DNA from: a virus
Reading direction: 5' to 3' (one strand)
Virus record (IMG/VR): IMGVR_UViG_3300014208_001418
DNA length: 54,277 nt
The notes under the pieces were generated by a model. It saw nothing but the letters and a program-made list of their open reading frames with translations. It did not search any database and was not told the DNA's origin. Of this stretch, positions 3,708 to 23,988 are shown piece after piece. A program made the position numbers and the translations under genes. Position 1 is the stretch's first letter. Each line of letters starts with the position of its first letter.

Positions 3708-3935
3708 ATGAGAAATACCGAAATATCAGTATCCCGAAACTTTTCCTTACCTTTATCATTAGTAGTAGAGGTAGAAAAAACAGCAGACGATCCAGAACAC
3801 GGTTATTATAATCGTTCAGACTTTGCAAGAAAAGCATTTCGCAGAGAGCTAGACTTCCAAAGATCACTCAAAGAAGAAAAAGCACTCAAAGAACAAGAAC
3901 AAAAAGCACTCAAAAATAACGGAGTTTCACAATGA
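3708..3935 (+). CDS. Ribbon-helix-helix (CopG/NikR-like) regulator
   Basis: RNFSLP...YYNRSDFARKAFRREL pattern. Confidence 0.8.
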   Translation: MRNTEISVSRNFSLPLSLVVEVEKTADDPEHGYYNRSDFARKAFRRELDFQRSLKEEKALKEQEQKALKNNGVSQ

Positions 3936-5125
3936 ACAAACTATTAACCCTATTAATACTATTAATCCTAATACCCCTATCACTATCTCCAGCCTCAGCC
4001 GAAGACACCTACAACGCTAAAATTCAAATCGAAATATCCCAAGTCAATAACGGAGTAACTTCTTGGTCTGCTCCAATAACCTTCGATCTTAATAAGACTG
4101 ACTCGAAATCCATCTATGGTATATCAGTAAACTATGCTGATATCGGAAACTCCAATTCCTTAATCCTTCTTCGTATCGCAGGAGGTTCCACATCAGACGT
4201 AGCGATGGCAAAGAATCAGCAAGCCTGCATAAAAGGGACCTGTGTAATGAATATCTCTCTACCCATAAACGTTGGAGATGTTCGTATAACATTGATGGAT
4301 ATAATAAAATCCTCTGCCTACTCATCCACTACAACAACCTCTGATAACATAGTAGAACTATACGTTCTCTGTTCCTCAGGCGAAAGACTCATCCTAGATA
4401 GAGACAGTCCCAATAATTATAACCCAACTCTCTGTGTCTCAAAAACAGGATGGTCTACGACCTCATCCAAAAACCTAATCATGTATATGAAACGTAACGT
4501 TATTACACCAATATCCTTAAATGTCGTTACAAATGGTGGATACAAAGAAGAAATAGTAGATGTCAACACTCGAAAATATACTATTACCTCCAACGAAGTC
4601 TACACCTTCAATGTCAAAGCCACTACCCAAGATATATGGGGAGGAAACATCGAAAAGCTCAATACCTATACCTTAACAGTAGCAGGTCTTGGTTCCACGT
4701 CTTCAGTACCCTCAACTCCCTCAACCTCTCCTTCAACTCCAACAAAGTCCTACAGCGTCTTTACAGGAGAACGTCAAGAGATTACTCTTCAGCCTGGATC
4801 ATTCGATGAAGATCCCTCTTTCACAGCATCCCAATTAAGCTCAACTCCCGATAAGTCAATATGGGAACTCTCATTCTTCGAATCAGGGATAACATCAACA
4901 ACATACAACCCCAAAACTGGAACCCCTTTTTCCATCGAATTCAGAGTAAGTGATCGTCCCACTCCAAAAGTCACTGAAGCTGCTCAAACTCCTCCACTAA
5001 CCTCTTACTCAGATACAATCCTATACATAATCATTGTACTCCTGATAATAGCAGCAGCAATATATTATCTCAAAGTCAAAAAATCCCCCTCCAGAGAACG
5101 CAAAATAACAACCAGAGAACCTTAA
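3932..5125 (+). CDS. Type I membrane surface protein, unknown function
   Basis: Signal peptide, PST linker, C-terminal TM plus basic tail. Confidence 0.8.
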   Translation: MNKLLTLLILLILIPLSLSPASAEDTYNAKIQIEISQVNNGVTSWSAPITFDLNKTDSKSIYGISVNYADIGNSNSLILLRIAGGSTSDVAMAKNQQACIKGTCVMNISLPINVGDVRITLMDIIKSSAYSSTTTTSDNIVELYVLCSSGERLILDRDSPNNYNPTLCVSKTGWSTTSSKNLIMYMKRNVITPISLNVVTNGGYKEEIVDVNTRKYTITSNEVYTFNVKATTQDIWGGNIEKLNTYTLTVAGLGSTSSVPSTPSTSPSTPTKSYSVFTGERQEITLQPGSFDEDPSFTASQLSSTPDKSIWELSFFESGITSTTYNPKTGTPFSIEFRVSDRPTPKVTEAAQTPPLTSYSDTILYIIIVLLIIAAAIYYLKVKKSPSRERKITTREP

Positions 5126-5137
5126 AAGAGCCCTTTC

Positions 5138-6337
5138 ATGACCACAATAAACAACGACATCTATTCAGGTATCAACAAAGTCTACTTCCTGACAGCCGAA
5201 GCTGAACCCGTAGATGCAGGCGTTTTCGACATGGACTACGGAGTCGACAAAAACAAATACAGTTCGGGTCAATTTGATCCCTCTGTAGACTTTTTTGATG
5301 ATACAATCTATGAAGGTAGACCATTCTTGAAAGTCTGTTTCATGCATCACGACTTATCCTCCATAGGCCTAAAAATAGGTCCTGGTCACATACATGAACG
5401 CTATTTTATCTCTACAGAACCCAACATCCCTATAACTGACATCTTCCGTCAAACCTCATATGGTAACATCCTAATCTACGGAACTCCCAAATCAATGAAC
5501 CCACCCACCCTCAATGACAATCAGGGACAAATAAAGCTTTGGGAAGTCGAACCTTACCTCTGTAAAGAAGATATCGAACTCCTCATAAACAACATCAATG
5601 CAGTATCCATATTCAAAAAAGAACTAGTAGACGCTAAAGTAAAAGCCCATAACTCCACAACCGAAGCCGTTCTTCAAATGGCTCGTGCAGTCTCCGCAGA
5701 ATCCTCCAATGTAGCTTTCGCAACCGTCATCAAAGTAATCCTTGCTCGTCTCCAACAATACCAGGGGAAGCTCATAGACATGAACGTAGAAGTAACCCAA
5801 CGCCTTCAGAAAGGAATGGAAACTATGGAAGGCCAACTCGATCTTGGAATCCCTTGGAATGATGTCAAAGCCTACGATGTCAAAAACACAATAGAAGACA
5901 TAGGATCCACTATTAATTCCATGACAGCTCTAAAGAACCTAAATCCAAATCCATCTGATAACGTCAAAGAATATGCCCTCAATATGGCTATTGAAATATG
6001 TGGCATCCCCTTCATAAAAGAACACCTGGGTTCTTACAACGAAAATACCCAGCCAAAACATATAAGTACATTCAGCGGGTTATCTACAGAGTACATGAAA
6101 AATCAGTTGGCCGCCAATATCCCTCCTCAAGAAATCGAAGCACAGATGACAAAGTTCGTTGAAAATCTCATGTCCAAATTCAACATAAACGGAAACGACA
6201 TGAAAAAAGCAGTAGAGGAAACTCATCAAGAAATGCTAACTCGAAACCCCAATCACCCTAACTATCAACAGATCCCCTATGCCAACCAATACAATAAACA
6301 ACTCTCTCAGCAATACCCTCAACAGTACTCCCAATGA
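5138..6337 (+). CDS. Hypothetical soluble protein with coiled-coil region and Q/Y-rich tail
   Basis: Long ORF with native codon usage. Confidence 0.75.
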   Translation: MTTINNDIYSGINKVYFLTAEAEPVDAGVFDMDYGVDKNKYSSGQFDPSVDFFDDTIYEGRPFLKVCFMHHDLSSIGLKIGPGHIHERYFISTEPNIPITDIFRQTSYGNILIYGTPKSMNPPTLNDNQGQIKLWEVEPYLCKEDIELLINNINAVSIFKKELVDAKVKAHNSTTEAVLQMARAVSAESSNVAFATVIKVILARLQQYQGKLIDMNVEVTQRLQKGMETMEGQLDLGIPWNDVKAYDVKNTIEDIGSTINSMTALKNLNPNPSDNVKEYALNMAIEICGIPFIKEHLGSYNENTQPKHISTFSGLSTEYMKNQLAANIPPQEIEAQMTKFVENLMSKFNINGNDMKKAVEETHQEMLTRNPNHPNYQQIPYANQYNKQLSQQYPQQYSQ

Positions 6338-7445
6338 CGTAATAATAGAAGTACTCCCCACAATCTCTTATAGTAGTTTATTCTCCGACTCCAACATTTT
6401 TTGGATATTCACAATTGGCATATTCTCCATCCTCTACCTAATCTTAGGTCGCTTTGATACAATCAAAAAAAGCACTCGTACCCTTTTCGCTCTCTCCATC
6501 CCCATCCTCATAGACCTGTTCATATCATTCGGAACCTTCACCTTTACCTTCCCATTCTCCTATTCTTTCACAGTCTCCCACGGAGTAATGTTCCTTAAAC
6601 TCCTAGATTACCTATTTTCCTATGGTCTATACAACGACTACTCCAGTTCTCTCATATCACCCTTCATTCAAAACGCCTCTCCTGTAGCCTCCTCAACCCT
6701 AACCTACCTACTCCTATTCCTAATAAATTCAATCGACACGATCCTAGAATTCATTTTTCTCTCTTATTTAACCTATACCCTTATAACAATCATCGAAAAC
6801 TCTACTCATAAACAAATTAACTATCAACTTCCAATCTCAATCGCAATAGGATTCATACCCGTATTCTTCTATATGATATTCGTTTCAAATCCCATAGAAG
6901 AGACAGCCAAAACAATCATAAACCTCAACGCAACTATAGACTTCTTTGCTTCTTCCTCCTTATTAACCATAGCATTAATGGCATTCTTTATAATCCTAAA
7001 TTTTGTAATCATCTCTCAAATAATCTTCATCGTAGTAGAACTCTGCTTTACCCTATACTCAAACCTAAATTACTCCAAAGCAGGAATAGAATGGCTTTAC
7101 TCCAAACACGGAATCGCATTATCCTTCTCAATCGTTTACTCCCTTATTTTCATGCTACACTCTGATTTCAAGTGGTACTCAGTATTTCCGATTTTACTCC
7201 TTTATTCCTATTTTAAAGACAAATCCTCAACCTACATCAAAAACTCTAAAACTAATCAATTTGAAACTCAACGCATTCAGGACATATCTCGTTCTACAAT
7301 AGAACAATATAATCCTTCTTCTCATCCTCATCCTTTTTCCGAACCCGATCAAATTCATGATGAATTCTCTCTTTATAACATAATCCTTTCCATCCTCGTA
7401 ATAATCATACTAGTCCTCTCCTATTATTGGTACACCCTGCAATGA
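6279..7445 (+). CDS. Polytopic membrane protein
   Basis: Many hydrophobic segments; start uncertain. Confidence 0.75.
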   Translation: MPTNTINNSLSNTLNSTPNDVIIEVLPTISYSSLFSDSNIFWIFTIGIFSILYLILGRFDTIKKSTRTLFALSIPILIDLFISFGTFTFTFPFSYSFTVSHGVMFLKLLDYLFSYGLYNDYSSSLISPFIQNASPVASSTLTYLLLFLINSIDTILEFIFLSYLTYTLITIIENSTHKQINYQLPISIAIGFIPVFFYMIFVSNPIEETAKTIINLNATIDFFASSSLLTIALMAFFIILNFVIISQIIFIVVELCFTLYSNLNYSKAGIEWLYSKHGIALSFSIVYSLIFMLHSDFKWYSVFPILLLYSYFKDKSSTYIKNSKTNQFETQRIQDISRSTIEQYNPSSHPHPFSEPDQIHDEFSLYNIILSILVIIILVLSYYWYTLQ

Positions 7446-23247: not shown

Positions 23248-23308
23248 TGTAGACAGCAACACACAATCGTACTTTCCCACCCAACACACTATTTTATTGT
23301 TGTCTACA
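23248..23308 (+). ncRNA. Candidate hairpin sRNA 2
   Basis: 12-bp stem TGTAGACAGCAA/TTGTTGTCTACA; loop contains TTTCCCACCC. Confidence 0.4.
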
Positions 23309-23373
23309 CATTTTAATCATTTTTATCTCCCACAGCGTAACTCTTTTATATTATAACATAGTAGTAGCATTGC

Positions 23374-23453
23374 GACTTTGTGCAGATGATGATTCATTTT
23401 TCATATCACCATAATAAAAAGGGATCAATCTTTTAAGTCATCTGCACAAAGTC
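23374..23453 (+). ncRNA. Candidate hairpin sRNA 3
   Basis: Perfect 16-bp stem directly after a TATA-GTAGTAG promoter; loop contains TTCATTTTTCATATCACC. Confidence 0.6.
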
Positions 23454-23529
23454 CACTCCTATCTCCATCTCTCCCATCTCCAAAATTTCTAAACATTATC
23501 TTTATATACCATATCAGCATCTTCTCATT

Positions 23530-23988
23530 ATGAAAAAACTTCTTCCCCTAATAGCTATTCTCTTAGCTATCTCTGTACTGACTACAACCGCTTCCGCCAG
23601 CTTCTTCGACTTCCTATATTCCCCAAAAGTCACCCCCTTCGTTCCCATTTCCAAAGAAGAACAATGGCTCTCCCTATCCCAAAACCTTGATAATCTCAAC
23701 ACTCCTGTCAATATTGAAAAACTACAAACTCTCCTCTCCTCCTATAACTACAAAGACGCAACTTTCATAATCGAAGTCACAGACCTTAAAAAAGCTTTCA
23801 TACTCGACTACAATGCAGGAGCAATAACCTCCTTCAACGGAGGAGCTTATGACATAACATACGTAATAAAGCTTCCCTCTTCAAAAGTAAACACTATAAT
23901 CGATATCCTAAACAACGACTCCTTTTCTCTTCACTCTTTTTCCCCTCTCACCAAAATTCGGCTCTACTTAGAACTCGCCCACTCCTAA
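23530..23988 (+). CDS. Secreted hypothetical protein
   Basis: Signal peptide; near-leaderless after TATA ~23501. Confidence 0.75.
   Translation: MKKLLPLIAILLAISVLTTTASASFFDFLYSPKVTPFVPISKEEQWLSLSQNLDNLNTPVNIEKLQTLLSSYNYKDATFIIEVTDLKKAFILDYNAGAITSFNGGAYDITYVIKLPSSKVNTIIDILNNDSFSLHSFSPLTKIRLYLELAHS

Follow-up and report, generated by a model that had tools for sequence, protein, structure and literature searches.

The stretch of DNA analyzed here, IMG/VR virus record IMGVR_UViG_3300014208_001418 (54,277 nucleotides; hereafter the window), is part of ENA contig k141_1704922 (148,445 bp) and belongs to a circular archaeal element that encodes the fusogen Fusexin1 (Fsx1). The element is a member of a previously undescribed family of ~150–185 kb, and it is most likely an episomal, much larger and self-replicating variant or relative of the mobile elements that carry Fsx1 in haloarchaea. 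We consider the chances about even that it is a virus-like, non-integrated archaeal circle that replicates itself and spreads in membrane-bound particles, which would fuse with new hosts.

Fsx1 and its overlapping partner gene

The open reading frame (ORF) at positions 10181–11893 encodes a 570-aa protein that, by profile and predicted fold, is a genuine Fsx1, a fusogen of the HAP2/class II type, in agreement with the first-pass annotation of the window. It comprises a signal peptide, domains I–III, a Cys-rich membrane-proximal domain and one C-terminal transmembrane segment. Neither the local copy of Pfam nor a PDB search with the sequence alone gave a match for this ORF; an exhaustive homolog search yielded 330 relatives. 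A profile of 87 Fsx1 relatives matched the Fsx1 structure PDB 7P4L with an E value of 7.4e-51, profile positions 49–501 aligning with chain residues 16–491 (nearly the whole ectodomain), and the Cys-rich C-terminal block aligned up to residue 491. The same profile matched HAP2 (5OW3) more weakly (E 5e-6). When the AlphaFold2 model (pLDDT 86.6) was searched with Foldseek, 7P4L came first (E 6e-24), followed by HAP2, alphavirus E1, EFF-1 and the Rift Valley fever virus glycoprotein Gc; the TM-scores are low (0.33–0.41) because the domain arrangement differs from that of the trimeric crystal form. In the public collection the protein carries the precomputed Pfam tag PF28161. Its hydrophobic segments fall at residues 7–25 and 548–566, the latter within a model helix at 548–569, and a single transmembrane segment is predicted.

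Directly upstream lies a gene for a 148-aa, N-terminally anchored beta protein (9738–10184), the stop of which overlaps the fsx1 start by 4 nt. A homolog search with this protein returned only the query itself, and the same arrangement was found in two relatives of the element. In the first, G001 (two contigs of a metagenome-assembled genome, or MAG, with a bacterial Ratteibacteria label), contig C2 encodes an Fsx1 of 41% identity and an overlapping partner of 38% identity (E 7e-16). In the second, G002 (IMG/VR UViG_3300042535_000037), the overlapping partner is 31% identical to the 148-aa protein (E 4e-8), and the gene at the Fsx1 position encodes 597 aa with the same architecture. This 597-aa gene was matched by hmmsearch over the domain III region only (E 1.5e-4) and by hhalign with a probability of 7%, and is called Fsx1-like here by position only. 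By sequence comparison, the 148-aa gene is a conserved, translationally overlapping partner of fsx1. A complex prediction for the Fsx1 ectodomain and the partner scored 0.00, which speaks neither for nor against an interaction.

The position of the partner gene calls to mind the proteins that accompany class II fusogens in viruses such as the alphaviruses (E1/E2) and flaviviruses (E/prM), whose fusogens share the class II fold with Fsx1. The likeness is a positional analogy only, resting on a small membrane-anchored gene directly upstream of fsx1, and those viruses, in contrast to the element, are RNA viruses with nucleocapsids.

A closed circle without recognizable head-tail genes

The replicon is a closed circle of 148,304 bp, present in three independent assemblies. 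A JGI contig of 148,431 bp has the identical sequence, its start shifted by 10.3 kb relative to the ENA contig. A 58.9-kb Logan contig matches both ends of the ENA contig at 100% identity, and the two offsets add up to 148,304, from which the circle follows. The same length is obtained from the ENA contig by subtracting 141 (the k-mer; 148,445 − 141) and from the JGI contig by subtracting 127 (148,431 − 127). The suspicion that the window is not the whole replicon, raised in the first-pass annotation together with a call to examine circularity, was therefore well founded. Strand bias in the element is extreme, and inteins and homing endonucleases are dense. The window is read almost wholly from the + strand, where all window genes named here lie.

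Annotation from precomputed Pfam tables and PHROG scans covers ~133 of the 148 kb (~90%), and all statements about the element as a whole refer to this portion. At the level of sequence profiles, genes for a capsid, terminase, portal, tail or tyrosine integrase are absent from it, and the window ORFs on their own have no head-tail gene or integrase by Pfam or PHROGs. The earlier observation that no HK97 capsid, terminase, portal, tail or integrase gene is recognizable in the window thus extends to most of the circle, and the annotated flanks hold neither virion genes nor ribosomal or other housekeeping genes of a chromosome. A PHROG scan of 93 unassigned ORFs returned HNH and endonuclease VII matches and one marginal tail-fibre match, and no capsid family. 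The precomputed Pfam tables contain no relaxase, no TraG/VirD4 coupling protein or other part of a type IV secretion system, and no Orc1/Cdc6 family across the ~133 kb. An integrated state was not encountered: the circle is closed, and no Phage_integrase-type Pfam family occurs in the annotated portion, where the sole recombinase is a serine resolvase adjoining a TnpB gene. This pair (L011:7885–9715; OrfB_IS605 plus Cas12f-like TNB) constitutes an IS607-type transposon within the element; G002 holds two TnpB copies.

The relatives were found by way of the ATPase described below, and comprise a 184-kb JGI contig with the same local gene order, G002 and the two contigs of G001. G002 is a complete IMG/VR genome of 183,084 bp with a 127-bp terminal overlap, listed by IMG/VR as viral. 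It shares with the 148-kb element, in order, the replication core, RFC, a PD-(D/E)XK nuclease, PolB, a helicase, the RFC large subunit, a 1023-aa protein, the CPBP protease and giant surface proteins. No match to Terminase_6N (PF03237), Phage_capsid (PF05065) or Phage_portal (PF04860) was found in G002, positive controls for these having worked, and Phage_integrase was likewise without a match there. The capsid family PF04451 of nucleocytoplasmic large DNA viruses (NCLDV) also gave no match in G002, with a positive control that was equally silent.

The archaeal nature of the element is clear from its TATA promoters, an intron-bearing tRNA, and PolB together with RFC. The MAG labeled Ratteibacteria has no PolB, which fits mis-binning of the G001 contigs. 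Disaggregatase-related domains (PF06848, PF08480) in G002 give a hint, from sequence, of Methanosarcina-like hosts; the same part of that genome (L027–L036) encodes a T4-type RNA ligase, a CCA-adding/polyA polymerase head domain, a dCMP deaminase, SNF2 and UvrD helicases, and glycosyltransferases.

A HerA/VirB4-type ATPase and its gene module

The first-pass annotation recommended a search for VirB4, HerA or FtsK ATPases, and one of the HerA/VirB4 type is encoded just outside the window, ~8 kb upstream and on the strand opposite to the window genes (L001:420–1694). This 424-aa P-loop protein has only weak Pfam matches of its own and belongs to a family with 12 relatives at 40–72% identity, one of which passes the Pfam DUF87 cut-off; the G001 homolog matches AAA_10 and DUF87. 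The AlphaFold2 model (pLDDT 81) has as its closest structural neighbors, over ~300 residues, the DndH C-domain (Z 24.8), Sulfolobus HerA (Z 23.4) and VirB4 (Z 22.6), followed at lower scores by TrwB (Z 17.7), the packaging ATPase B204 of Sulfolobus turreted icosahedral virus 2 (STIV2; Z 14.3) and FtsK (Z 14.0). A scan of the ATPase family alignment against genome contigs gave no match. Two of the ATPase relatives carry inteins, in keeping with an essential gene, and the insertion sites differ between the two (L023:8189–10843 and L035:12450–14717; Intein_splicing plus LAGLIDADG, and Hom_end_hint). The copy of the 148-kb element has none.

The ATPase gene is one of five in a conserved module. 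The other four encode two membrane proteins, of 397 aa (type I) and 388 aa (polytopic), a soluble protein of 399 aa and an acidic protein of 274 aa (L001:1691–2515). In G001 and G002 the 397-like, 399-like and acidic 274-like genes and the ATPase stand side by side in this order with the 388-like gene adjacent. In the 148-kb element ~12 kb of genes for surface proteins lie between the pair formed by the ATPase and acidic genes, which is outside the window, and the remaining three. The first gene of the module (397 aa; 3932–5125) encodes a signal peptide, a Ser/Thr/Pro stalk and a C-terminal transmembrane segment; its homologs (G001 contig C7, E 2e-19; G002, E 3e-12) lie directly beside the ATPase cluster, and neither Pfam, PHROGs and NCBIfam nor a PDB profile search of the family gave a match. 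The soluble 399-aa protein (5138–6337) is a candidate matrix or DNA-associated protein with homologs at the corresponding position (G001 C7, E 2e-24; G002, E 1e-22). It had no family match, a PDB profile search of its family was nil, and the ESM Atlas offered nothing usable. The 388-aa protein (6279–7445) has at least six predicted transmembrane segments, and its homologs (G001 C7, E 2e-19; G002, E 5e-15) are divergently placed next to the module.

The surface-protein block

Fsx1 is encoded within a block (3708–23988) in which, by hydropathy scan, 13 of the 16 ORFs of at least 70 aa have an N-terminal signal or anchor and/or transmembrane segments, all of them on the + strand. The three others are a 75-aa ORF at 3708, the soluble 399-aa ORF of the ATPase module and a homing endonuclease gene at 14323. 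Two secreted ORFs precede the block in the window (at 298 and 936) and three lie farther upstream, outside it (L001). The first-pass observation of co-oriented membrane or secreted proteins around the fusexin (about 15) is upheld. Few of the membrane proteins can be assigned to families, namely Laminin_G_3, PEGA, CPBP and CarboxypepD_reg. This is the surface gene block of the element, probably late or structural, with many glycosylatable adhesin-like proteins, and it most likely supplies an envelope, with the fusogen and its partner, adhesins, glycan-degrading proteins and a maturation protease.

The candidate adhesin encoded upstream of the block (936–3542) is an 868-aa secreted protein with a signal-like N-terminus, a concanavalin-like Laminin_G_3 domain (PF13385, E 1.4e-22) and 36 N-glycosylation sequons. 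Between the ATPase-module genes and the fsx1 pair are encoded a 158-aa protein with a C-terminal transmembrane segment and a weakly winged-helix-like DNA-binding N-terminal part (7427–7903; phrog_25401, "DNA binding protein", E 0.0011), a 377-aa beta-rich protein with an N-terminal anchor (8074–9207) and a 95-aa small hydrophobic protein (9444–9731). The 377-aa protein is a candidate particle or surface protein; it has no family match, and its ESM Atlas neighbors are weak and Ig-like, at TM-scores below 0.4 with low-confidence models. In G002 a 112-aa hydrophobic OR​F occupies the position of the 95-aa ORF, a positional likeness only, with no BLASTP match between the two.

Downstream of fsx1 follow two type-I membrane proteins, one of 429 aa with a PEGA domain (12029–13318; PF08308, E 1.5e-4) and one of 311 aa with a Thr/Pro stalk (13338–14273). 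Weak homologs of the PEGA protein flank fsx1 in G001 C2, and a PEGA protein is also encoded upstream of fsx1 in L014. The 102-aa ORF at 298–606 has a C-terminal Cys-containing stalk (CPTGLIW..KCVAPPETSDDTYIY) as in the PEGA protein and stops before the transmembrane anchor; judging from this sequence, it looks like a truncated duplicate of the C-terminal anchor region of that protein. The NUMOD3/HNH homing endonuclease (14323–15483; PF07460, E 5e-55) is a selfish insert that stands outside the envelope module. It is followed by a CPBP (Rce1-like) intramembrane protease with seven transmembrane segments (15533–16327; PF02517, E 5e-9), which is kept near fsx1, the G002 homolog (E 1e-26) lying 3 kb downstream of the gene at the Fsx1 position. 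The block continues with a 211-aa protein with an N-terminal anchor (16296–16931) and a giant surface protein of 1970 aa with 113 sequons, CarboxypepD_reg domains and a C-terminal transmembrane segment (17167–23079), to which two surface giants of ~2430 aa correspond in the G002 module. A 152-aa secreted protein (23530–23988) is encoded by its final gene.

Replication genes and promoter classes

By its predicted gene content, the element carries a full replisome and a DNA-modification set of the 7-deazaguanine pathway. In the right half of the window are found an anaerobic ribonucleotide reductase, NrdD (28417–32046; PF13597, E 2e-135), and a family B DNA polymerase, PolB (49897–53778; PF00136, E 6e-32; PF03104), both with an intein (Intein_splicing, with LAGLIDADG_3 in NrdD and LAGLIDADG in PolB). 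An RFC small-subunit-like clamp loader (41496–42512; AAA, AAA_lid_RFC1, Rad17), a PD-(D/E)XK nuclease (48527–49387; PF12705, E 1.6e-9), a QueD-like PTPS protein and a GNAT protein are also encoded there. A conserved replication core (33106–40265) contains, in order, genes for a 358-aa protein, an AAA_24 ATPase, a 335-aa and a 409-aa protein, then ORFs absent from G002 (a 176-aa ORF, NADAR and two small ORFs) and finally an HhH nuclease; by BLASTP, the five genes in common with G002 are collinear with its stretch 16470–21241. Outside the window lie genes for the RFC large subunit (NCBIfam, E 7e-28), an XPD-like helicase with an intein and a DEAD helicase, as well as FolE, QueC, a TGT/DpdA-like enzyme and three radical-SAM proteins.

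The assignments of PolB, RFC, ribonucleotide reductase and a tRNA made in the first-pass annotation are upheld, and two others are not. The 409-aa "primase" has a weak PriL-like match (NCBIfam, E 0.003), a PHROG of unknown function and no PDB match, and the 335-aa "clamp-like" ORF has no PDB sequence match. The tRNA is tRNA-Lys(UUU) (53994–54136), with a 68-nt intron after position 38; ARAGORN found it with introns allowed, and it was missed by default ARAGORN and by Rfam. An (AGT)n promoter at 53966 precedes it.

A distinct promoter class, also proposed earlier for this half, is well marked. The word AGTAGTAGTAGCA, with up to two mismatches, occurs 25 times against 0.8 expected; every copy falls within 23357–53978 and none lies to the left of 23357, in the surface block proper. 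The copies stand 14–52 nt upstream of gene starts, typically directly after a CTTTATATAC-type TATA box, and the span marks a regulon of replication and nucleotide metabolism. The regions upstream of two left-hand genes, those starting at 298 and 17167, share a different word, AATTATAATTATA ... TATGGAGTTAAAATC (220–297 and 17090–17166), which is unlike the (AGT)n promoters and is a possible signature of a second promoter class.

Possible modes of spread

The first-pass annotation described a replicon spread either as an enveloped virus or vesicle-packaged element, or by cell–cell fusion. Its genomic premises stand (a 148.3-kb circle, a replisome, a class II fusogen, a surface block and no head-tail genes); the choice between the modes is one that we infer. 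Since a real HAP2-type fusogen occurs together with a DNA-pumping ATPase and without a recognizable capsid, spread in fusing membrane-bound particles appears the most likely mode. The (AGT)n promoters would turn on the replication genes, and the proteins of the left block would be placed in the host membrane. The HerA/VirB4-type ATPase, with the polytopic membrane protein, could then move or condense the circular DNA into membrane buds, to be released as pleomorphic, vesicle-like enveloped particles bearing Fsx1 and adhesins. Glycan-binding and glycan-cutting proteins (LamG, CBM, GH16, alginate-lyase-like) may pass the particle through the outer layer of the host, after which Fsx1 trimers would fuse the envelope with the new host membrane and deliver the episome. 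A more specific proposal, to which we would give rather less than even weight, is that the circles of ~150–185 kb represent a new lineage of capsid-less enveloped double-stranded DNA (dsDNA) viruses of archaea, probably of methanogen-related hosts, with entry by a class II (HAP2-type) fusogen and a co-expressed companion and DNA loading by a HerA/VirB4-type ATPase.

Several points weigh against spread in enveloped particles. Sequence profiles often fail to reveal the capsid proteins of archaeal viruses, so a hidden jelly-roll or other capsid would fit. To our knowledge, 148 kb is about ten times above the known vesicle-type (pleomorphic) archaeal viruses. The ATPase fold is as near to conjugative VirB4 as to HerA and fits cell-to-cell transfer equally well. 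Searches with the ATPase and Fsx1 by tblastn against phage and archaeal-virus records, and by hhalign, gave no sequence link to pleolipovirus genes, the ATPase family reaching a probability of 10% against VP8 of Halorubrum pleomorphic virus 1 (HRPV-1) around Walker B only. Neither protein matched a record of an isolate virus (phage or archaeal) or of a plasmid by tblastn. Finally, the vesicle result for the haloarchaeal Fsx1 elements is known from a meeting report only (PMC13712861).

It is unlikely, in our estimate, that the element is instead a conjugation-like plasmid, in which Fsx1 on the donor surface would fuse cells or form bridges and the ATPase and polytopic protein would move the episome with no extracellular particle. 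The structural neighbors of the ATPase (VirB4, Z 22.6, and TrwB, Z 17.7, both considered as near as HerA), the AAA_10 and DUF87 matches of its G001 homolog, and the lack of capsid genes in the PHROG scan and in G002 are all consistent with such transfer. The original model for Fsx1 elements was likewise one of conjugative-like, fusion-dependent transfer (PMC9259645), and large Methanoperedens plasmids with a comparable cluster of HerA and membrane proteins have been proposed to extrude DNA (PMC9674854). A relaxase, TraG/VirD4 or type IV secretion part, however, is missing from the Pfam tables for the ~133 kb, and the repertoire is virus-like: an rIIA-like ATPase, DNA hypermodification, a replisome with an intein-bearing PolB, and promoter classes split by genome half. 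In addition, IMG/VR classes G002 as viral, and the meeting report favors transmission of the haloarchaeal elements in vesicles (PMC13712861).

A capsid may have escaped recognition, either that of an icosahedral virus with an internal membrane (jelly-roll plus FtsK/HerA-type packaging ATPase) or that of a large spindle-shaped virus, with Fsx1 on an extra outer envelope or acting at another step; we judge this improbable to much the same degree. Viruses of the PRD1, STIV and sphaerolipovirus types draw their packaging motors from the FtsK/HerA superfamily, to which the ATPase belongs, and the structural matches of the ATPase include the PH1 ATPase (TM-score 0.58 on the target), African swine fever virus B354L, corticovirus NTPases and B204 (Z 14.3). 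Four conserved proteins (397, 399, 274 and 377 aa) have no assigned fold, and the MoxR–vWA pair of the element recalls bicaudaviruses. Single jelly-roll capsid-like proteins of Borgs were seen by structure prediction only (PMC12660748). The ATPase itself, however, is of the full-length HerA/VirB4-like kind, with ~300 aligned residues, and not of the short A32/B204 type (200–250 aa). None of the 93 unassigned ORFs matches a capsid PHROG, and the complete relative G002 has no capsid family (the control for the NCLDV capsid being uninformative). Moreover, an exposed outer membrane is required for a class II fusogen that is anchored at its C terminus and has an ectodomain of 500 aa.

The reading as cellular DNA, a chromosomal island of S-layer or surface-protein genes beside the replication genes of a small archaeon, has in its favor many surface proteins with archaeal-type C-terminal anchors, a CPBP protease and a relative binned into a MAG, and was rejected as highly improbable in view of the closed 148.3-kb circle in three assemblies, the lack of ribosomal and housekeeping genes across ~133 kb, the extreme strand bias, the dense inteins and homing endonucleases, and a Ratteibacteria-labeled MAG whose lack of PolB fits mis-binning.

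Comparison with known systems

Fsx1 has been shown to be fusogenic and to be located in integrated mobile elements of haloarchaea, together with HerA/VirB4/TraG ATPases and integrases (Moi et al. 2022, PMC9259645). According to a 2026 meeting report, a haloarchaeal Fsx1 element is carried in vesicles that bud from the host and is passed on by membrane fusion, and is hence a dsDNA archaeal virus (PMC13712861). The present element resembles these in a true Fsx1, a HerA/VirB4-class ATPase, a composition unlike cellular DNA, the lack of recognizable capsid genes and a proposed dependence of spread on membrane fusion. The haloarchaeal elements are insertions of more than 50 kb with a XerC/D-type integrase, whereas the present one is a free 148-kb circle with no such gene in its annotated ~133 kb. 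It differs further in its complete PolB/RFC/NrdD replisome, 7-deazaguanine pathway, low-salt groundwater habitat and single predicted Fsx1 transmembrane segment. A TraG/VirD4 homolog was not seen in it, and the comparison of gene content with the published elements covers Fsx1 and the ATPase class.

Members of the Pleolipoviridae such as HRPV-1, and the pR1SE plasmid vesicles, offer a parallel to the organization proposed here, in which a host-derived membrane vesicle bearing a spike or fusion protein would enclose a genome that lacks a capsid. In both cases one gene block combines a type-I membrane spike with membrane proteins and a P-loop ATPase. Pleolipovirus genomes are 7–17 kb in contrast to 148 kb here, and the pR1SE vesicle genome is ~50 kb. 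The pleolipovirus fusion protein VP5 is not class II (PMC9259645).

The HMp plasmids, Borgs and jumbo elements of Methanoperedens are similar in other respects, with circular archaeal forms of 150–190 kb, groundwater or wetland habitats, strand bias, surface proteins and a cluster of HerA and membrane proteins (PMC9674854, PMC12660748, PMC13444090), and they, too, may be either plasmids or viruses. The defining marker of HMp plasmids is Orc1/Cdc6 replication (PMC9674854), whereas the present element has PolB, small and large RFC subunits, helicases and AAA_24. A Borg identity was rejected: Borg genomes are linear, end in inverted terminal repeats and are pervaded by tandem repeats, whereas the element is circular with few tandem repeats (Tandem Repeats Finder reported only seven short arrays in the 54-kb window). 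The terms fusexin, HAP2 and fusogen are absent from the Borg structure survey (PMC12660748), as is the term "fusion" from the HMp plasmid paper (PMC9674854).

Additional features

Other genes outside the window include those for GH16, an alginate-lyase-like protein, PAP2 and further secreted CBM and Ig-domain proteins. A 700-aa GHKL-type ATPase (L013:14869–16971) matches the PHROG families "RIIA lysis inhibitor" (E 8e-15); large phages typically carry such a gene. A MoxR (AAA_5) ATPase and a CoxE-type vWA protein are encoded at L009:14372–21437 with four small ORFs in between; such a pair is known from the two-tailed bicaudavirus ATV.

A GC-rich island at 30000–38000 (0.40–0.44, compared with 0.33–0.36 elsewhere) covers the end of nrdD and the replication core and contains many long antisense ORFs. 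Within it, a match to the Rfam family HEARO (IscB omega-RNA) lies at 32733–32956 (+), its 86.5 bits exceeding the gathering score. It is followed not by an IscB gene but by the conserved replication-module gene at 33106–34182. A related MAG contig encodes a full IscB (RRXRR plus HNH, 503 aa; L020:8680–10191), the 5′ region of which has 76% protein identity to the window ORF 32811–33116. From these matches, the HEARO sequence looks like an orphan or domesticated omega-RNA leader.

Significance

The presence of Fsx1 on mobile elements has been known since 2022 (PMC9259645), and the vesicle or virus nature of such an element has been reported orally (PMC13712861); the idea is therefore less new than the first-pass annotation assumed. 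What is new are free, circular Fsx1 replicons of ~150–185 kb with their own replisome outside hypersaline habitats, a conserved five-gene HerA-type module, a conserved overlapping fsx1 partner gene, and a complete relative, G002, without head-tail genes by sequence profiles.

Fusexins tie together viral entry, somatic cell fusion and gamete fusion, and their place of origin is debated. Archaeal Fsx1 has so far been documented only on integrated haloarchaeal elements. If the circles described here are enveloped viruses, class II fusion would be both ancient and widespread as a means of entry for archaeal DNA viruses, and the partner gene, the CPBP protease and the HerA-type motor would be concrete genes for budding, DNA loading and fusion. 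In size, they would far exceed every capsid-less virus type known so far. Large autonomous DNA viruses of archaea would then possess a complete class II fusion machinery, which would provide direct material on a virus-first origin of the gamete fusogen HAP2.

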